A stretch of 64,000 nucleotides of DNA from Verrucomicrobiota bacterium. Lineage in GTDB: Bacteria; Verrucomicrobiota; Verrucomicrobiia; CAIQCK01. Below are positions 30,536-59,456 of the stretch, piece by piece. The notes under the pieces are model-generated. The model had not been told where the DNA came from. It worked only from the letters and a program-made list of their open reading frames with translations, and did no database searches. A program made the position numbers and the translations under genes. How positions within the stretch are numbered: position 1 is the stretch's first letter; every line of letters starts with the position of its first letter. The DNA lies in NCBI GenBank assembly GCA_016222825.1, contig JACRQF010000011.1:61301-125300 (forward strand), written 5' to 3'.

Positions 30536-30985
30536 TTGAATACATCAGCCCAAGATGTTGCCCCAGCTCCCCTGAATCCACAGACGCCGCACATCCTCGT
30601 CGTGGATGACGAGACCTCCATCTTCGATGTCTTCGCGCTCATGTTTCCAGCGCCCGGCCACGTGGTCGCCGTGGCCGAGAATGGGGCGCGCGCGTTGCAG
30701 TTGGCCGCGGAGGCGCGTTTCGATGTCGCGTTTGTGGATTGTTTTTTGGGGATCGAGAGCGGCCCTGAAGTGGCGGAAAAGCTGCATGCCGTGCAGCCGA
30801 AACTGCATGTCGTGCTGATGAGCGGTTATCTTCAGGAAGAACGGGCTGCGGCGATGGAGAAAGCCGACGCGCGCGCGTTCCTGATGAAGCCGTTCAGTTT
30901 TGAAACGGCGCAGACCCTCGTTCGCCGGCTCTTTGGCACGAAGAAGCCAGTCGCCAAAGCCAAGGCGGCTTCGGAAGCCGTGTGA
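30536..30985 (+). CDS. Single-domain response regulator (receiver only)
   Basis: ILVVDDE, AFVD phospho-Asp, LMSGY and FLMKPF. Confidence 0.88.
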   Translation: MNTSAQDVAPAPLNPQTPHILVVDDETSIFDVFALMFPAPGHVVAVAENGARALQLAAEARFDVAFVDCFLGIESGPEVAEKLHAVQPKLHVVLMSGYLQEERAAAMEKADARAFLMKPFSFETAQTLVRRLFGTKKPVAKAKAASEAV

Positions 30986-31020: not shown

Positions 31021-31147
31021 TAGGGGGTTTCCCTACGATGTATGTCTCAATCCTTTGTGGGGTTTCTACGCGGAGTGGCGGGTCAGTTTCCTAGGCCGGT
31101 TTGAGGTTCTGGCCGCATTGCGGAGATGCGCGGAGGGGCGCTACGCT
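31021..31147 (+). promoter_or_regulatory. TAGG-N7-CCTA box (31021-31035; degenerate copy 31079-31093) plus sigma70-like promoter
   Basis: TAGGGGGTTTCCCTA and CGGGTCAGTTTCCTA, then TTGCGG-N18-TACGCT. Confidence 0.65.
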
Positions 31148-31172: not shown

Positions 31173-31439
31173 ATGAACGAGCAGCTTCCAGAGCCCATGC
31201 TGTTGGGGAATGCGGAATCGGCGGACGGCGGATTGCCGCCGACGATGAAATTGTCGTTGCCCAACCTGGACCGATGCGGCGGCAGGCGCATCGCGGACAG
31301 TGAGTTGGTGGTGTGTCTGGCGATCCCGGACGGGGGCTGTCATTTCGCGCTGCTCTACGGCGACACGCATTATTGCTGTCACTCGCGCCGTCTGGAAATC
31401 GCCGCCCACACCCGCGATCTCAAGCGAGCCAAGGGATAA
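31173..31439 (+). CDS. Small Cys4-His protein, paralog 1
   Basis: LPNLDRC-x12-C-x7-CHF....G....CCHSRRLEIAAH, sharing exact motif spacing with four paralogs. Confidence 0.8.
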   Translation: MNEQLPEPMLLGNAESADGGLPPTMKLSLPNLDRCGGRRIADSELVVCLAIPDGGCHFALLYGDTHYCCHSRRLEIAAHTRDLKRAKG

Positions 31440-31469
31440 GGCCGGCGTCCCGTTATGAGGACGCCGGCC
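31439..31469 (+). terminator. GC-rich hairpin after paralog 1
   Basis: GGCCGGCGTCC...GGACGCCGGCC inverted repeat with no U-tract. Confidence 0.45.
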
Positions 31470-31492
31470 GGGGGGGGGCGGGTCGTTCATCG

Positions 31493-31559
31493 TAGGCTCC
31501 CGCCTTAGGTTGTTTCGAGATTCGTTCCGATTGTTGAACCACAGCGGATGAACGATGGT
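31493..31559 (+). promoter_or_regulatory. TAGG-N7-CTTA box plus promoter of paralog 2
   Basis: TAGGCTCCCGCCTTA, then TTGTTG-N17-GATGGT. Confidence 0.55.
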
Positions 31560-31634
31560 CTGCGGCCGAAGATCGCGGCATGGAGACAGGCGAAGGGCAG
31601 AGGCGCGGAGCCGTTCTTAATGCGGAACGTCATC

Positions 31635-31922
31635 ATGAACAAGTCGGTTACACTCAAGAAAAGATTGGCGATGTTGGACGCGGAACACGCCGCCCACAGC
31701 ATCCGGGCGGCCCAGCGGGCGCCGCTGCCGGAGGCCACCGCTTGCGCCGGCGCGCAAGTCGTGGACAGTTACATCGTTGTCTGCCACTCGTATCTGGAGC
31801 TGCCGTGTGAATTCGTGCTGCCGTTCGGCGAGGTGTGCTATTGCGGCCACCCGCGCCGGTTGGAAATCGCCGCCCGCACCCGCGAGCTCGAGCGCGCGCG
31901 GCGACAAAGCGCCATCGGCTAG
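31635..31922 (+). CDS. Small Cys4-His protein, paralog 2
   Basis: LPEATAC-x12-C-x7-CEF....G....CGHPRRLEIAART. Confidence 0.8.
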   Translation: MNKSVTLKKRLAMLDAEHAAHSIRAAQRAPLPEATACAGAQVVDSYIVVCHSYLELPCEFVLPFGEVCYCGHPRRLEIAARTRELERARRQSAIG

Positions 31923-31997
31923 GATGGGGGCCGCTGGCCGTTGCGGGACCAGCCACGCGGAACGGAGACGCGCACGCGAACAGGAACCGGCCGGACC

Positions 31998-32035
31998 TAG
32001 GCCCCGTTCCCAAACCGCCATAGTGGTAAAACCTA
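31998..32035 (+). promoter_or_regulatory. Two near-consensus TAGG-N7-CCTA boxes 23 bp apart, upstream of paralog 3
   Basis: TAGGCCCCGTTCCCA (31998) and TAGTGGTAAAACCTA (32021). A downstream promoter was not clearly resolved. Confidence 0.5.
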
Positions 32036-32154
32036 AGCTTGATTCCGATACTGCATGGAGACTCTCCCCTAATGACGCCAAGCGCGATGCGAGCGATATT
32101 CTCACATGCTTGAGGCACCCGTTATGAAGAAGAGCTGACAGAAACGGAGAGATT

Positions 32155-32466
32155 ATGAAGAATCTACAGAGGCGGATGGAGGATGATGTGCCGCCCCACA
32201 GGGTCGGTCGGTGGCCCGTGATGAAGCAACCGTTGCCGCAGGAGGCCAAGTGCGTCGGCATGCGGGTCTTGGACAGCGAGTTGGTCGTATGCCTGGCGAA
32301 CCCGGCCGGCGGCTGCGGGTTCTCGATGACGTTCGGCAGCAAGCGGTTTTGTTGCCATCGGCAGCATTTGAAATTCGCCGCGCGCGCCAAGGCATCGCCC
32401 CTGGCAGCGGCGGGGCGCGGACATTGCTGCGGGATGCTTTGTAACGCGGAGTATCGGCACGACTGA
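32155..32466 (+). CDS. Small Cys4-His protein, paralog 3
   Basis: LPQEAKC-x12-C-x7-CGF....G....CCHRQHLKFAAR. GGAGA RBS. Confidence 0.8.
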   Translation: MKNLQRRMEDDVPPHRVGRWPVMKQPLPQEAKCVGMRVLDSELVVCLANPAGGCGFSMTFGSKRFCCHRQHLKFAARAKASPLAAAGRGHCCGMLCNAEYRHD

Positions 32467-32529
32467 GCCGCTCCTTCTTCAACGCGCATAAAGCGCCGCC
32501 TCGCGGCATCGCAATAAGGGGGAAGTCCT

Positions 32530-32597
32530 CAGGCGTTTTCCCTAGGCCATTTTCAGGTTCTGCCCGTATTGCTGATACGCCGGCCGCGTGGGACAGT
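32530..32597 (+). promoter_or_regulatory. CAGG-N7-CCTA box plus promoter of paralog 4
   Basis: CAGGCGTTTTCCCTA, then TTGCTG-N17-GACAGT. Confidence 0.6.
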
Positions 32598-32620
32598 GCG
32601 GGCGGTCGTTCTTGGCTACC

Positions 32621-32953
32621 ATGGATCCGGAAGGCACACAAGGCAGGATGTTGATCGAGGTCGAGAGGGAGTTGACTGTCGCCACCGCTCACAGAATCGT
32701 GAGGGAGTGTTTGCCGGACGAAACGCGGTGCGCGGGCCGGCAGATTGCGCGGAGTGACATGGTAGTCTGCATGGCGGGGGCTGACCACCCATGTGAATTC
32801 TCCGTGGAGTTGGGCTGCCGCCTTCTGTGCTTTCATCCTCGCCGGCTGGAGATCGCCGCGCGCCAGCGCGCGCTGGCCCGCGAGCAAACGCAGGCGCTTC
32901 GACAAAAACCTACCACCCGCATCGCCTCCAAACGCACGCAGCGAAATCACTAG
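32621..32953 (+). CDS. Small Cys4-His protein, paralog 4
   Basis: LPDETRC-x12-C-x7-CEF....G....CFHPRRLEIAAR. Start uncertain (32621 or 32648). Confidence 0.8.
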   Translation: MDPEGTQGRMLIEVERELTVATAHRIVRECLPDETRCAGRQIARSDMVVCMAGADHPCEFSVELGCRLLCFHPRRLEIAARQRALAREQTQALRQKPTTRIASKRTQRNH

Positions 32954-33018
32954 GCTCTCTCCCTAGGCCCGCTTCGGCTTCTGCCCGGTTTGTCAATGCA
33001 CGGGCCGCGAACCATAGT
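32951..33018 (+). promoter_or_regulatory. TAGG-N7-CCTA box plus bfr promoter
   Basis: TAGGCTCTCTCCCTA, then TTGTCA-N17-CATAGT. Confidence 0.7.
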
Positions 33019-33179
33019 GCTCCGCAGATCGAAAGCACGGATTTTGGACGAGAAGGTGGTCTCACTTGCTTTCGTTCCGTCGCGTGACTAGAGTGCGCAC
33101 GCTGGCGCGGTTTCAAGGATTCAGAACAACGGTCAAGACCACCGCAGAAACGCTGTCAACCCATGAAGGAGATTCTCGA

Positions 33180-33650
33180 ATGAAAGGTAATGCAAAGGTC
33201 ATCGCCACACTCAACATGCTGCTGGCCGAGGAGCTGACGGCGATCAACGAGTATATGGTGCATTCGGAGATGTGCGCGAACTGGGGCTTCGAGCGCCTGC
33301 ACAAGGTCATTGAGAAACGCGCCATTGACGAGATGAAGCACGCGGAGAAACTAATCGCCAGGATTCTCTTCCTCGAAGGCACGCCCGTCGTCAGCAAGCT
33401 CAATCCGATGCATATCGGCGCGGATGTCGTGGCGCAACTGAAGAACGACCACGGCGCGGAGGCGACGGCTGTGAAGTTGTATAACGAGGCCATCCCGCAG
33501 GCGGCCGAACAAGGCGACAACGGCACCCGCGAGATGCTCGAAGACATCCTTGAGGACGAGGAGACGCACATTGACTGGATCGAATCACAACTCGATCAGA
33601 TCAAGCAGATGGGTGCGCAGAACTACCTGGCCGAACAAACGCGGGCGTAA
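33180..33650 (+). CDS. bfr: Bacterioferritin
   Basis: MKGNAKVI..LN.LLAEELTAINEY, DEMKHAEKLIARILFLEG and EETHIDWIE ferroxidase/heme-Met motifs. Confidence 0.96.
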   Translation: MKGNAKVIATLNMLLAEELTAINEYMVHSEMCANWGFERLHKVIEKRAIDEMKHAEKLIARILFLEGTPVVSKLNPMHIGADVVAQLKNDHGAEATAVKLYNEAIPQAAEQGDNGTREMLEDILEDEETHIDWIESQLDQIKQMGAQNYLAEQTRA

Positions 33651-43606: not shown

Positions 43607-43882
43607 TCACCCGACGGCGCGGCGTTCAATAGAGGGCAATCGGGGAGCAGGTCTTTTGGTTTGCTTGGTGCGCGCGACGATCTGTTCGCGCTGCGGGTGG
43701 CGGCAGAGCCGGTGAACGCCGAAGGCAACTTGGTAGCGGCAGCGCGCAGGGCCGGCGACGAGGCACCACGCCGCGTCGCCGCAGCTCCGCCCCTTGGCCC
43801 GGCAGATGTCCGGGTCTGGCAGGGATTGTATCGGGTGGAAGGATTGTAGTTGAACGCCGGACTGCCATGTCTTCGTGTTCAT
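43607..43882 (-). CDS. Small Cys4-His protein, paralog 5 (dispersed copy)
   Basis: LPDPDIC-x12-C-x7-CRY....G....CRHPQREQIVART, the same spacing as the 31-33 kb paralogs. Confidence 0.8.
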   Translation of the reverse strand: MNTKTWQSGVQLQSFHPIQSLPDPDICRAKGRSCGDAAWCLVAGPARCRYQVAFGVHRLCRHPQREQIVARTKQTKRPAPRLPSIERRAVG

Positions 43883-50353: not shown

Positions 50354-50431
50354 GGGCTTTTGCCTTGAATTCAAGGGGAAGTGGGAATAAAAGAGTGGCC
50401 GTTGAAACCGAACCAACGGAGATTGATTTTC

Positions 50432-52153
50432 ATGAAAGCAAAGGCTGCGGGGTTCACTGTGGGAAAAACCAATTCGACACTGCCCAAATCCCCCACGGGC
50501 ATCCAGGGTCTGGACGAGATCACCGGCGGCGGCCTGCCCAAAGGCCGGCCCACGCTCATCGCGGGCGCGGCCGGTTGCGGTAAGACGCTGCTGGGGATGG
50601 AGTTCCTCGTGCGCGGCGCCACGGAGTTTGGCGAGCCGGGCGTGTTCATGGCGTTCGAGGAGACGGGCAAGGAGCTGGTCGCCAACGTCCGCTCGCTCGG
50701 CTTCGACCTCAACAAGCTCGTGGCGCAAAAGAAGATCGCGCTCGACCACGTGCGCGTCGAGCGCAGCGAGATCGAGGAGACCGGCGAGTATGATCTGGAG
50801 GGGCTGTTCATCCGCCTCGAACACGCCGTCAAGAGCGTCGGCGCCAAGCGCGTCGTGCTGGACACGGTGGAGACGCTCTTCGCCGGGCTGCCCAACCAGC
50901 TCATCATCCGCGCCGAGCTGCGGCGGCTCTTCGCGTGGCTCAAGGAGCGCGGCCTCACGGCCATCATCACCGGCGAGCGTGGCGGTGCCGAGGGCACGCT
51001 GACGCGGCACGGGCTGGAGGAATACGTCGCCGACTGCGTCATCGTGCTCGACCACCGCGTGGACGAACAGATGTCCACGCGCCGGCTGCGGGTGGTGAAG
51101 TATCGCGGTTCGATGCACGGCACCAACGAGTATCCGTTCCTCATCGGCGAGCACGGCATCTCGGTGATGCCCGTGACCTCGATGAAGCTGGACCACGAGG
51201 TGACCTCGCAGCGCATTTCGTCGGGCATCGCGCGGCTGGACGAGATGCTCGGCGGCAAGGGATTTTATCGCGGCAGCAGCGTGCTGGTCTCCGGCTCGCC
51301 GGGCTGCGGCAAGACCAGCGTGGCGGCGCATTTCGCCGACGCGACCTGCCGGCGCGGCGAGCGCTGCCTGATGTTCGCCTACGAGGAGTCCCCCAGCCAG
51401 GTGTTGCGCAACATGCGCTCCATCGGCATTGACCTCGAACAATGGGTGCGCAAGGGCCTGTTGCAAATCCACGCCACGCGCCCCACGCTCTACGGGCTGG
51501 AGATGCATTTGGTGACCATGCACGACCTGGTGGTGAAGTTCCGTCCCACGGTCGTCATCGTGGACCCGATCAGCAACCTCACCGTCCGCAATGACGAGAC
51601 GGAGCTGAAGCCGACGTTGATGCGGCTGATAGATTCCCTGAAGACGCGGCACGTCACGGCGCTGTTCACCAGCCTGACCACCGGCGGCTCCAGCCTGGAG
51701 GAATCGCAGGTCGGCGTCTCCTCGCTCATGGACACCTGGCTGTTGTTGCGCAACATGGAGAACAATGGCGAGAAGACCCGCACGTTCTACATCCTCAAGA
51801 GCCGCGGCATGGCTCACTCCAACCAGGTGCGCGAGTTCGTCATGACCGGCAAGGGCGTGGACCTGCTGGATGTCTATGTCGGCGCCAACGCCGTGCTCAC
51901 CGGCACCGCGCGTGTGGCGCAGGAAGGCCGCGAGCGCGCCGAGGCCGCCCTGCGCCAGCGCGAGCACACGCGCAAGCTGCGCCAGCTCTCCCGCAAACGC
52001 AAGGCCATCGAGGCGCAGATCGCTGCGCTCCAGGCTGACGTGGAGGCCGAGGAGGATGAGATCAAGTCCTCGGTGTCCGAGGATTCGTTGCAGCAGAAGG
52101 CCGTCGCCGCCGATCGCCGCCAGATGACCCAACTGCGCGGCGGCGCCCGCTAA
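50432..52153 (+). CDS. kaiC: Double-domain KaiC ATPase/autokinase
   Basis: Two Walker A motifs (GAAGCGKT, GSPGCGKT), FEE/YEE, KYRGS.H and KSRG..HS. Phospho-site equivalent VSSLMD. C-terminal coiled coil. Confidence 0.95.
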   Translation: MKAKAAGFTVGKTNSTLPKSPTGIQGLDEITGGGLPKGRPTLIAGAAGCGKTLLGMEFLVRGATEFGEPGVFMAFEETGKELVANVRSLGFDLNKLVAQKKIALDHVRVERSEIEETGEYDLEGLFIRLEHAVKSVGAKRVVLDTVETLFAGLPNQLIIRAELRRLFAWLKERGLTAIITGERGGAEGTLTRHGLEEYVADCVIVLDHRVDEQMSTRRLRVVKYRGSMHGTNEYPFLIGEHGISVMPVTSMKLDHEVTSQRISSGIARLDEMLGGKGFYRGSSVLVSGSPGCGKTSVAAHFADATCRRGERCLMFAYEESPSQVLRNMRSIGIDLEQWVRKGLLQIHATRPTLYGLEMHLVTMHDLVVKFRPTVVIVDPISNLTVRNDETELKPTLMRLIDSLKTRHVTALFTSLTTGGSSLEESQVGVSSLMDTWLLLRNMENNGEKTRTFYILKSRGMAHSNQVREFVMTGKGVDLLDVYVGANAVLTGTARVAQEGRERAEAALRQREHTRKLRQLSRKRKAIEAQIAALQADVEAEEDEIKSSVSEDSLQQKAVAADRRQMTQLRGGAR

Positions 52154-52174
52154 GTTTGACCGGAGAAGAACGCG

Positions 52175-52465
52175 ATGAAGAAGACCGGAGAAAAAACCTG
52201 GCAGTTGCGCCTCTACGTGGCCGGGCAGACCGCCAAGTCCATCACGGCCCTGGCCAACCTCAAGAAGATCTGCGAGACGCATCTGGCGGGCCAATACGAG
52301 ATCGAGGTGATTGACTTGGTGCAGAACCCCAAGCTGGCCGCGGGCGACCAGATTCTGGCCATCCCGACGCTTGTGCGCCGGCTGCCCTCGCCAATCAAGA
52401 AGATCATCGGCGACCTCAGCAACGAAACGCGCGTGCTGGTCGGCCTCGACCTGCGCCAGGGCTAA
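52175..52465 (+). CDS. kaiB: KaiB-family protein
   Basis: [24 protein letters not shown] and IIGDLS. Confidence 0.95.
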
Positions 52466-52490
52466 GATGAAAGAGGTTCTTGCAAAACCC

Positions 52491-52519
52491 TGTAGCGGCG
52501 GTCATAGACCGCCGCTACA
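52491..52519. repeat. Perfect REP palindrome between the kaiB genes
   Basis: TGTAGCGGCGGTC-ATA-GACCGCCGCTACA. Confidence 0.85.
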
Positions 52520-52553
52520 GTAGAGGCAAGAGGATCGAGAGAAAGAAGTTCTC

Positions 52554-52898
52554 ATGGCAAAGGTATCAACCAAGACCGGGTTGGAAGCGCTGGAAGAAGC
52601 GGCGGCCAAGCAGGGGACGGAGCGCTACGTGCTCCGCCTCTACATCACGGGCATGACGCCGCGCTCCACGCTGGCGGTCGAGAACATCCGGAAAATTTGC
52701 GAGGAGCATCTCCAGGGGCGCTACGACCTGGAGGTGGTGGACATCTACAAGCAGCCGACGCTGGCCGAGGGCGAGCAGATCATCGCCGCGCCGACGCTCA
52801 TCAGGAAACTGCCGCTGCCGCTGCGTCGTTTCATCGGCGACATGAGCAACACCGACCGCATCCTGCTGGGATTGGATTTGCGAACGAAGGCCAAGTAA
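52554..52898 (+). CDS. kaiB: Second KaiB-family protein
   Basis: YVLRLYITGMTPRS, IIAAPTL and FIGDMS. Confidence 0.93.
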   Translation: MAKVSTKTGLEALEEAAAKQGTERYVLRLYITGMTPRSTLAVENIRKICEEHLQGRYDLEVVDIYKQPTLAEGEQIIAAPTLIRKLPLPLRRFIGDMSNTDRILLGLDLRTKAK

Positions 52899-53603
52899 AT
52901 GGAAACGATGACCGAAGAAGATCTGCTTAAAGAGAACGCCGAACTGCGCGCGCGGCTGGAGGAAGCCGAGGAGACGCTTCGCGCCATCCGCGCCGGCGAG
53001 GTGGACGCGGTGATGGTGGGCGCACAGGTCTTCACCCTCAAGAGCGCCGAGACGCCCTACCGGATCCTCGTGGAGGCCATGAACGAGGCCGCCATCACGC
53101 TCACGCCCGACGGCACCGTCCTCTACTGCAATGGCCGGTTGGCCGAACTGTTCCGCGTGCCGCATGAGGCCGTCGTCGGCGCCACGCTGCGGCAGTTCGT
53201 GGCGCCCGCCGACCAGCCGAAGTTTGACGCGCTGTTCGCCGAGAGCCTGAGATGCTCCAGCAAGGGTGAAATCGGCCTCGGACGCAAGGGCGGCCCGCCC
53301 GTTCCCGTGCAGCTTTCCCTCAGCCTCATGAAGCTGGACGACGGCACTCGCGGCCTCTGCGCGGTCATCACCGACCTCAGCGAGCGCAAGCGCGTCGAAA
53401 TTGCCCTCAAGCAACTCACCGAGGACTTGGAAGCCCGCGTGGCCAGCCGCACATTGGATCTGCAGGCCAAGAACGAGGAGTTGAAGAAATCCAACAGAAT
53501 GATGGTCGGCCGCGAGTTGCGCATGATCGAGTTGAAGAAAGAAATGAACGCCCTCTGCGCGAAGTTTGGCCAGCCACCGAAGTATCCGAACGCCGTCGAG
53601 TAG
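52899..53603 (+). CDS. PAS-domain protein without a kinase domain
   Basis: N-terminal coiled coil LEEAEETLRAIRAGEVDA, PAS (YRILVEAMNE...VITDLSERKR) and C-terminal MVGRELRMIELKKE coiled coil. Confidence 0.88.
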   Translation: METMTEEDLLKENAELRARLEEAEETLRAIRAGEVDAVMVGAQVFTLKSAETPYRILVEAMNEAAITLTPDGTVLYCNGRLAELFRVPHEAVVGATLRQFVAPADQPKFDALFAESLRCSSKGEIGLGRKGGPPVPVQLSLSLMKLDDGTRGLCAVITDLSERKRVEIALKQLTEDLEARVASRTLDLQAKNEELKKSNRMMVGRELRMIELKKEMNALCAKFGQPPKYPNAVE

Positions 53604-58459: not shown

Positions 58460-58948
58460 ATGAAAATTCAAACTGAAGACATTGGCTGGAACCTGAAGCG
58501 GCAGTGCAACGCCGTCATCATCCACGAGGATGCGGCAGCCGAAAGCCGCGCCCGGGTTCTGTGGCAAGCCATCTTCAACGACATGGGGCCGGACATCCCG
58601 TGCGTCGTCACGTATATGACGACCGCGCAGATGGGGAGCATGCTGGTGTGCGAGGGAGCCGGCCAGATTGATATCGTGATCATCTCCGTGCATGATGCCG
58701 TCCGTTGCCTCGCTGGCGGCGCTTGGTGGCTCACCGATTGGCTGAATGCCCAGTCTCGCATGCCGCGCGCGTTGTTCCTGCTCCACGACGGCGACGATGA
58801 CTCCGATGTGGTGCGGGGACTGAGCGCGCTCGCCGAGGGCGCGGGCGTGACCATGTTCAGCCGTGGCCACAGCGAAGTGCCTGGTTTTCCCGCCACCCAC
58901 TCGGTGCCCGATCACATGCCAGCGGAGCAATTCGCCGGCGTGTCATAA
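58460..58948 (+). CDS. Hypothetical alpha/beta protein (possible degenerate receiver fold)
   Basis: AVIIHED, IDIVIISVH and RALFLL strand pattern. Fold is inference. Confidence 0.65.
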   Translation: MKIQTEDIGWNLKRQCNAVIIHEDAAAESRARVLWQAIFNDMGPDIPCVVTYMTTAQMGSMLVCEGAGQIDIVIISVHDAVRCLAGGAWWLTDWLNAQSRMPRALFLLHDGDDDSDVVRGLSALAEGAGVTMFSRGHSEVPGFPATHSVPDHMPAEQFAGVS

Positions 58949-59000
58949 CGAGCAACACCCGCCTGACAACGCCATTTCTTATCGAAACCTGGAACACCCC

Positions 59001-59456
59001 ATGAAAGCCACCGAAGTCTTGGTCAGCCACCACTCTTTTCTTCGCGCACTGTTCGATGAAATCGAGCGTGCAATGCGTGACGTGGACACCTCGGCGGAGA
59101 TCAGCACGTTCGCCTGCATGGTTGAAGCTCTGATGCTTGATCACGCCGAAGCGGAAGAAACCCTTTTGTTTGCCCCCTTGGACAACATGCTCATGGAGAA
59201 AGGCCAGCTTATGCAGCTTTACTCCAACCACCGCGAATGTCTCAGTCTCTTGCAGAAGGCGCAGGAGGCGCGGCCCGTCACAGAAGCCAAAAGCCTCCTG
59301 TTGGTTGCGATGCGCATGCTGCGCGATCACTTCCGCGACGAAGAGCGGAAGATCATCCTGCTGGCCGAAACCACGTTTCAACCCAAGTCGCTCCAGAAAC
59401 TCGGCGACTTGTGGGTGGAGCGGCACGCGCCTTCAGACGAGCAGCTTGCGCGATAA
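59001..59456 (+). CDS. Hemerythrin/HHE domain protein
   Basis: H..L...E, HAEAEETLLF, NH and HFRDEE di-iron ligand pattern. Confidence 0.85.
   Translation: MKATEVLVSHHSFLRALFDEIERAMRDVDTSAEISTFACMVEALMLDHAEAEETLLFAPLDNMLMEKGQLMQLYSNHRECLSLLQKAQEARPVTEAKSLLLVAMRMLRDHFRDEERKIILLAETTFQPKSLQKLGDLWVERHAPSDEQLAR

Follow-up and report, generated by a model that had tools for sequence, protein, structure and literature searches.

Four small genes, g1 to g4, lie in tandem in a 64,000-nucleotide stretch of a Verrucomicrobiota genome (contig JACRQF010000011.1, positions 61,301 to 125,300; hereafter the window), where they stand between a gene for a receiver-only response regulator and the bacterioferritin gene bfr. 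They are real genes under purifying selection, and their products share one domain with four cysteines and a histidine (Cys4-His). The array is a divergent branch of a far larger family that is found mostly in Verrucomicrobiota. We propose that these are small cytoplasmic proteins with a single metal site that would partner signalling and iron proteins in a metal- or redox-dependent way, a proposal on which we consider the evidence evenly balanced.

The C-terminal 55–60 residues of the four proteins align without gaps, with g2, g3 and g4 being 39, 38 and 35% identical to g1. Eighteen columns are invariant, including L29, P30, C35, C48, C56, F58, G63, C68, H70, A77 and A78, and the common motif reads L-P-x4-C-x12-C-x7-C-x-F-x4-G-x4-C-x-H. 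A regular expression for the C-terminal half of this motif matched four times in the six frames of the window, each time in g1 to g4. An earlier sequence-only reading of this DNA had described four open reading frames (ORFs) of about 90–110 residues with a common Cys4-His motif and identical spacing, and the alignment bears this out. It had also called their N-termini unrelated, which holds only in part, as the N-terminal stretches of g2 and of g4 are each conserved among their own orthologues.

The coding status of the array rests on two kinds of evidence. The GC content at third codon positions is 0.74–0.82 and that at second positions 0.49–0.52, which is the pattern of the known genes of the window. 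Among the g4 orthologues, dN/dS ranged from 0.157 to 0.386 in all 15 pairs compared, which indicates purifying selection.

A profile built from the four ORFs found 17 places in the 6.6-Mb genome of the same organism, including tandem pairs on contigs C9 and C1. A broader profile found 18, one of them the fifth paralogue that the sequence-only reading had counted, which lies in the window itself on the opposite strand. When 17 of these own-genome paralogues are aligned, only one proline and the four cysteines are invariant. In the databases, a word-indexed protein search returned 10 proteins, four of them from this genome, and an exhaustive profile search of 1.84 billion representatives returned 1331 clusters at E≤1e-3 and 398 at E≤1e-10. 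These clusters come mostly from Verrucomicrobiota metagenome-assembled genomes (MAGs); most are 65–100 residues long and the median member has 81.

An alignment of 143 sequences shows what the family conserves. The four cysteines, in order, are present in 143, 143, 142 and 143 members, Pro30 in 140, and an arginine directly after the first cysteine in 130; Arg73, Arg79 and Thr80 are kept in 121, 95 and 125. The histidine is less strict, being present in 125 and replaced by asparagine in 14, and the earlier expectation that homologues conserve all five residues is thus borne out for the cysteines and only largely so for the histidine. The family consensus can be written L-P-D-x3-C-R-A ... C-L-V-x2-P-x2-C ... 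F-G-x4-C-x-H-P-x-R-x2-I-x-A-R-T.

The products of g1 to g4 show the family spacing C-x12/13-C-x7/9-C-x11-C after L-P, and the family hidden Markov model recognises them with 55–64 bits (E 4e-14 to 1e-16). They lack the canonical Arg-Ala after the first cysteine, having G, A, V and A instead, and V-V-C replaces the usual [DE]-C. In the tree they form a separate clade with a support of 98/94, which makes the array a divergent subfamily.

In the order to which this organism belongs, eight of the nine genomes that are at least 80% complete carry the family, and the other seven besides this organism hold 2–23 copies each. In an even sample of the phylum it occurs in at least 3 of 301 genomes, a lower bound given that 18 candidates were scored per genome. 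Contigs from one genome per species gave 13 full-length matches, eight with Verrucomicrobia-type titles and three from one 'uncultured bacterium' MAG; one of the remaining two is labelled Bifidobacteriaceae and the other Terracidiphilus.

Some members depart from the single-domain plan. Four library proteins (P0012, P0017, P0018 and P0077) carry two or three Cys4-His domains per chain, with no ART helix between the copies, which suggests that the core domain ends shortly after C-x-H. On contig C21 of this genome (L037, G000:C21:80895-81098), one member does not have the HP-x-R...ART helix that normally follows the fourth cysteine and may be truncated or decaying; a hemerythrin-like gene stands 5' of it, and ppk and a CHAD/Ppx-like gene are close by. 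On contig C1 (L036, G000:C1:564326-564764, minus strand), a tandem canonical pair stands directly 5' of cheA-cheW. In the second ORF of this pair neither ATG nor GTG precedes the motif, the sole candidate start being a TTG at the L of LPDP, and the ORF is in a different frame from the first.

No characterised relative came to light, in line with the sequence-only reading, which had recognised none. Pfam gave no match for g1 to g4, and its best value among 23 family members was E 0.14. The best value against NCBIfam was 0.19 and that against PDB sequence profiles 0.3, neither pointing to a family, and Foldseek with the predicted fold returned nothing below E 1.6. The sources name family members only 'hypothetical protein', and their neighbours in the ESM Atlas are unnamed clusters. 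A search for fusions among longer proteins found one, P0281 (239 residues), which has no Pfam domain; of the 14 longer library matches, 13 had none either, and the other, P0131, is a repetitive protein with unrelated matches. Full-text searches of the literature turned up no description of this family, although the supplements, which the search did not cover, might hold unnamed mentions.

AlphaFold2 (AF2) models built on the 143-sequence alignment agree on a hairpin, a second hairpin and a C-terminal helix for both g1 and the fifth paralogue. The mean predicted local distance difference test score (pLDDT) was 71.4 for g1 and 76.6 for the fifth paralogue, with ten-residue blocks of the domain at 73–88 and 78–90, respectively. 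In the predicted fold the first cysteine precedes strand 1, the second ends strand 2, the third precedes strand 3 and the fourth ends strand 4. As each thus begins or ends a hairpin, all four would lie at the open hairpin ends, where they could meet around one metal together with the histidine two residues after the fourth cysteine. A single centre of Zn, Fe or Fe-S may in this way staple the predicted fold. The fold, as modelled, is either new or modelled too poorly to be recognised, and the architecture of the putative metal site is probably novel.

The proteins are most likely to work in the cytoplasm. None of the 143 members has a signal-like N-terminus (a hydrophobic run of at least 10 residues within the first 35), in agreement with the earlier statement that signal peptides are absent. 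The core of the domain is neutral to acidic. The C-terminal segment carries a net charge of +4 to +9 in g1 to g4, with a median of +2 over the 143 members.

Among known small iron proteins, rubredoxin, high-potential iron-sulfur protein (HiPIP) and Rieske proteins are likewise small and bind one iron centre through four cysteines or through cysteine and histidine. The family has C-x-H after its last cysteine, and in 45 of 143 members the third cysteine is part of a C-x-H too. Rubredoxin uses CxxC, and HiPIP and Rieske proteins use C-x2-C and C-x-H...C-x2-H. The array family, in contrast, has neither the CxxC pair nor these other patterns, and no Pfam or fold match to such proteins. Any resemblance to the glucose EIIB domain of the phosphotransferase system (PTS; PDB 3bp3, PTS_EIIB) is one of shape only: structural scores are far below a meaningful level, identity is 7–8%, the cysteine pattern is unrelated and there are no PTS genes nearby.

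Table 1. Features of the array, its flanks and the fifth paralogue (window coordinates).
Feature	Position	Strand	Remarks
Receiver-only response regulator	30536..30985	+	149 aa; PF00072, E 1.1e-18; directly 5' of the array
Box copy 1	31087..31129	+	reference copy of repeat family D2; about 40 nt 5' of the g1 start
g1	31173..31439	+	88 aa; Cys4-His domain ORF; identical to database protein P0002
11-bp GC-rich hairpin	31440..31469	+	directly 3' of the g1 stop; -34.5 kcal/mol, z -2.48 against shuffles; no T run
g2	31635..31922	+	95 aa; Cys4-His domain ORF; start backed by the orthologue-like P0112
g3	32155..32466	+	103 aa; most divergent copy, extra Cys-rich tail; identical to P0048
Box copy 2	32538..32580	+	about 40 nt 5' of the g4 start
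g4	32621..32953	+	110 aa; copy with single orthologues genus-wide
Box copy 3	32959..33001	+	directly 3' of the g4 stop, about 180 nt 5' of bfr
Promoter-like TTGTCA-17-CATAGT	32990..33018	+	from consensus scan; overlaps box copy 3 at its 3' end
Promoter-like TTGCTT-N17-TAGAGT	33066..33094	+	before bfr; read by eye; judged the better of the two
bfr (bacterioferritin)	33180..33650	+	ferritin-like domain, PF00210, E 3.7e-38
Fifth paralogue (P0001)	43607..43882	-	91 aa; canonical LPDPxxCRA type

The domain matches of the two flanking genes (Table 1) confirm that the array sits between a receiver protein and bfr. The whole block lies inside a glycogen gene cluster, in the order glgA, a galT-like gene, the block, and then GH57. 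To see what else accompanies the family, we surveyed 10 further loci in the same genome, 22 in congeners and 38 in metagenomes. For the metagenome loci, 84 of 109 candidate ORFs were searched for domains, leaving aside opposite-strand ORFs that overlap a member, the near-duplicates L138 and L146, and a few others. The search for related loci was seeded with a closer alignment (A5), which biases the loci found in that way to the canonical LPDP[AV][VI]CRA type.

Signalling genes recur at these loci. Copies in the same genome adjoin CheA and CheW, two PAS proteins, a CheB-CheR-PAS fusion, an FHA protein, and a receiver together with a kinase. Receiver genes lie within 1.5 kb of a member at 7 of the 22 congener loci and 3 of the 38 metagenome loci, and are also found at L018, L021 and L022. 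The receiver of the array is 45% identical over 143 residues to that of L018, which comes from another Verrucomicrobia MAG and stands 1.7 kb from a family member. CheB-CheR is present at two metagenome loci, kinases at two and a gene for a cyclic-nucleotide-monophosphate-binding protein at one. Amylase genes of the glycogen-debranching type are also repeatedly present (L018, L101 and L125).

Genes connected with iron and oxygen form a second group. A multihaem cytochrome gene occurs both beside a copy in this genome and among the metagenome loci; VIT1 is found at L127 and FeoB at L029 and L157. A hemerythrin-like gene stands directly 5' of a member on contigs C10 and C21, that is, for two of the nine hemerythrin genes of the genome, where we estimate that about 0.04 would be expected by chance. 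These two proteins and a third encoded in the window at 58863–59456 are 45–49% identical to one another. A 131-residue protein inside the corresponding array of the congener G005 is 37% identical to the C10 protein (E 6e-27); the hemerythrins beside members at L022 and L153 belong to other subfamilies. A bfr gene stands beside a member at three of the four loci of the genus that have this bfr (G000, the genome of the window, G004 and G005), the exception being G006.

Two other parts of the window deserve mention. The hemerythrin-like gene at 58863–59456 (45% identity, E 5e-51, to the C10/C21 subfamily) has no family member beside it. At 50381–53603 the window holds kaiC (PF06745, E 5e-113), followed by two kaiB genes (PF07689 twice) and a PAS protein, which make up a clock or stress module of the KaiBC type outside the cyanobacteria.

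From these observations we draw the following picture. One Cys4(-His) metal centre would hold the fold of a small cytoplasmic protein. Such a protein would act through contacts with neighbouring signalling proteins, namely receiver domains, CheA/CheW, CheB-CheR or kinases, and would likewise partner iron and oxygen proteins such as hemerythrin-like proteins, bacterioferritin, FeoB and VIT1, the copies having been placed beside the genes that they serve. The sequence-only reading had suggested redox or iron sensors or adaptors. The recurrent iron and signalling neighbours fit that suggestion, and the metal on which it depends is something we infer.

Several points weigh against our proposal. 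Because the genome holds 120 receiver matches, some receiver adjacency is expected, and a receiver lies within 3 kb at 3 of 13 own-genome loci where a rough estimate gives about 1.4 by chance. In five relatives, only one of 15 loci of the hemerythrin subfamily lies within 1.5 kb of a member, and none of the eight bfr orthologues in other genera does. Both bfr and hemerythrin, which the sequence-only reading had proposed to look for in the neighbourhood, recur beside members, and neither link is general. Many loci have unrelated neighbours, including UvrD, DnaE, a tRNA synthetase and glycosidases, and related loci are not independent samples. The association with signalling and iron or oxygen proteins is thus repeated and loose, and no partner is obligatory. 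Nor does any fusion to a known domain offer a functional clue. The cysteine spacing, with no CxxC pair, appears to fit no known Zn or Fe-S motif. Finally, the array copies may act differently from canonical members, because they lack the near-invariant arginine after the first cysteine.

Among the alternatives, the strongest is that the proteins are adaptors or nucleic-acid binders with structural zinc. We regard this as rather unlikely. In such a case the zinc would be inert and the basic helix or tail would bind DNA, RNA or an acidic surface, with no sensing of metal or redox state. The charge of the C-terminal segment given above speaks for it, as do the conserved helix residues Arg73, Arg79 and Thr80, and each gene of the array stands alone, with spacers of 154–232 nt. 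There is also a precedent for small zinc proteins in many copies: the C(P)XCG zinc-finger micro-proteins of Haloferax volcanii are described as very small Cys4 proteins with many paralogues and mostly unknown function (PMC10716476). Like the array family they are tiny, stand-alone and cytoplasmic, but they hold zinc on two CxxC-type knuckles at hairpin turns. In the array family the cysteines are never closer than seven residues and are predicted to lie at open hairpin ends. CxxC is absent from the domain of g1 to g4 and from the family consensus, and no zinc-ribbon or zinc-finger Pfam model matches. Moreover, the core is not basic and the isoelectric point exceeds 8 in only 67 of 143 members, and inert zinc leaves the recurrent iron and hemerythrin neighbours unexplained. 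Our proposal and this rival are separated by one question, whether the site holds inert zinc or redox-active Fe or Fe-S.

A bolder version of our own proposal, which we think unlikely as a whole, would make the domain a new metal-binding fold, its two beta-hairpins clamped at their open ends by a Cys4(-His) centre, and its members lineage-specific plug-in modules that sense iron, oxygen or the redox state. The condition of the metal centre in any one copy would be passed on to the receiver, chemosensory, hemerythrin-like or iron-storage protein encoded next to it, and the array would tune release from storage (bfr and the glycogen genes) via the adjacent receiver.

Of all bacterial proteins the small ones are the least explored, and here a well-conserved family of more than 1000 clusters, which reaches 23 copies per genome in a Verrucomicrobiota lineage that has been little studied, has neither a name, a Pfam model nor a solved or recognisable fold. 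If the four cysteines bind metal, they would represent a new type of metal site architecture, and if the proposed role is true, the family would offer a handle on how iron, oxygen or redox state is linked to large two-component and chemosensory networks. Should it be only a structural zinc module, it would still be a new domain worth a family entry, if of modest interest. With 70–110 residues and soluble by sequence, the proteins are simple targets for expression.

For the array subfamily alone, a more specific function can be imagined. Here g4 and its duplicates would be a non-homologous replacement of the bacterioferritin-associated ferredoxin Bfd, with a redox Fe-S site that feeds electrons to the haem of Bfr and so frees iron. 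We consider this improbable. The likeness is one of position: g4, like Bfd, encodes a small four-cysteine protein directly 5' of bfr on the same strand (stop at 32953, bfr start at 33180), and the pairing recurs with the orthologues in G004 and G005, that is, at three of the four loci of the genus with this bfr. The genome, which is 93.8% complete, contains no Fer2_BFD match (PF04324), which the control genomes do. Close homologues of the bfr product are named 'bacterioferritin' by their sources, and Met52, invariant in 109 aligned homologues and kept in this Bfr, is presumably its haem ligand. Bfd itself is a small [2Fe-2S] protein whose cluster cysteines lie on the loops that contact Bfr, according to PMC12363616.

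Several observations oppose this reading. None of g1 to g4 matches PF04324 at E≤1, and neither their sequences nor their predicted fold resemble Bfd. The cysteines of Bfd follow the pattern C-x-C...C-x2-C and its fold is helical, in contrast to the spacing and the predicted beta-hairpin fold of the array proteins. The array family is, moreover, multi-copy and mostly not beside bfr. Orthologues of g4 persist in G001, G002, G003 and G007, which lack this bfr and whose sole bfr-like gene is a paralogue of 33–34% identity elsewhere, and conversely G006 has bfr with no member beside it. No member lies near the eight bfr orthologues of other genera mentioned above, and bfr has a conserved promoter-like element of its own.

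It is very improbable that the ORFs encode tandem precursors of peptide natural products or exported disulfide-rich peptides. Tandem small cysteine-rich ORFs with variable N-termini are what such a locus would show, but the conserved part is a folded C-terminal domain and not a leader, both AF2 models are globular, signal peptides are absent from all 143 members, and no radical-SAM, cyclase, protease or exporter gene stands beside the array or the own-genome copies examined. We give next to no credence to the notion of unexpressed chance frames, for although GC-rich DNA yields many spurious ORFs, it is opposed by dN/dS well below 1 in every pair, by a codon-position GC pattern as in coding sequence and by the retention of the four cysteines in hundreds of homologue clusters.

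The history of the array can be followed across the genus. In the genome of the window (G000) the locus runs glgA, galT, the response regulator, g1 to g4, bfr and GH57. G004 has glgA, galT, one copy, bfr and GH57, and the receiver is absent from its slot. In G005 the order is an ABC ATPase, an ABC-3 permease, copy A, the 131-residue protein, copies B and C, bfr and GH57, and in G006 it is ABC, ABC-3, bfr and GH57, with no family copy. G001, G002, G003 and G007 share ABC, ABC-3, one copy and GH57, and have no bfr at the locus. The single copies of G001, G002, G003, G004 and G007 are all orthologues of g4.

In the tree, g2 groups with the metagenome protein P0112 and with copies A and B of G005 (support 96/90), g3 falls within the g4 clade on a long branch (1.8), and g1 is an unplaced long branch. 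The g2 type is thus found in one congener besides; g1 and g3 are extra copies that have diverged. The split between g2 and g4 is older than the species of the genus. Because of this, and because the copies are only 35–39% identical, the array is an old, species-variable expansion at a hot spot beside GH57 and not a recent burst. A single ancestral gene, represented by g4, would have been duplicated in tandem to give the array in a variable slot beside bfr and GH57.

The non-coding parts of the array contain a repeated element, a 43-nt box with three copies (Table 1). Across the 6.6-Mb genome, a pattern of 21 specified bases taken from the box has exact matches nowhere but at these three sites; a further two sites have three mismatches and five have four. 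The regions 5' of g2 and g3 resemble it weakly. The sequence-only reading had assigned a box to each gene, which is true of g1 and g4 and, at best, faintly of g2 and g3, and the third copy lies between g4 and bfr. Its suggestion that promoter and gene were duplicated together fits g1 and g4 and does not extend to g2 and g3; g1 and g4 would have kept a common upstream box. Since the region of box copy 2 aligns 5' of g4 orthologues in five congeners, the box points to a regulatory role. As an RNA structure it was rejected, the three box regions folding no better than shuffles (z -0.15, -0.27 and +0.92), and as a sigma-54 element it was set aside on the GG-to-GC spacing, judged wrong by eye. For the array region and the box-like loci, Rfam yielded nothing beyond chance rows below its threshold.

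Between g4 and bfr there are two promoter-like elements, of which the consensus scan flagged the one overlapping box copy 3 and not TTGCTT-N17-TAGAGT. The block with the latter is kept at L043, ahead of bfr, and also at L044, which lacks bfr. The hairpin directly after g1 is a possible terminator or RNA end, and together with the spacers between the genes it would be compatible with separate transcription units.

Two further observations concern these elements. The congener G002 has kept the promoter-like block and its flanks although bfr is absent and GH57 comes next, which suggests either that bfr was lost recently or that GH57 uses the element too. An element of about 110 nt is conserved between two loci of the genome of the window, L120 (G000:C4:223075-223187, minus strand) and L121 (G000:C1:543537-543650, plus strand; nhmmer E 1e-33 to 1e-34), with a partial third copy at C1:543749-543838. 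Rfam does not match it, and several hundred nucleotides separate it from the next ORFs downstream. Its first 35 nt or so are box-like, with three to four mismatches to the pattern, and the remainder has no counterpart in the array; the element could be a small RNA or leader under the same type of promoter box.

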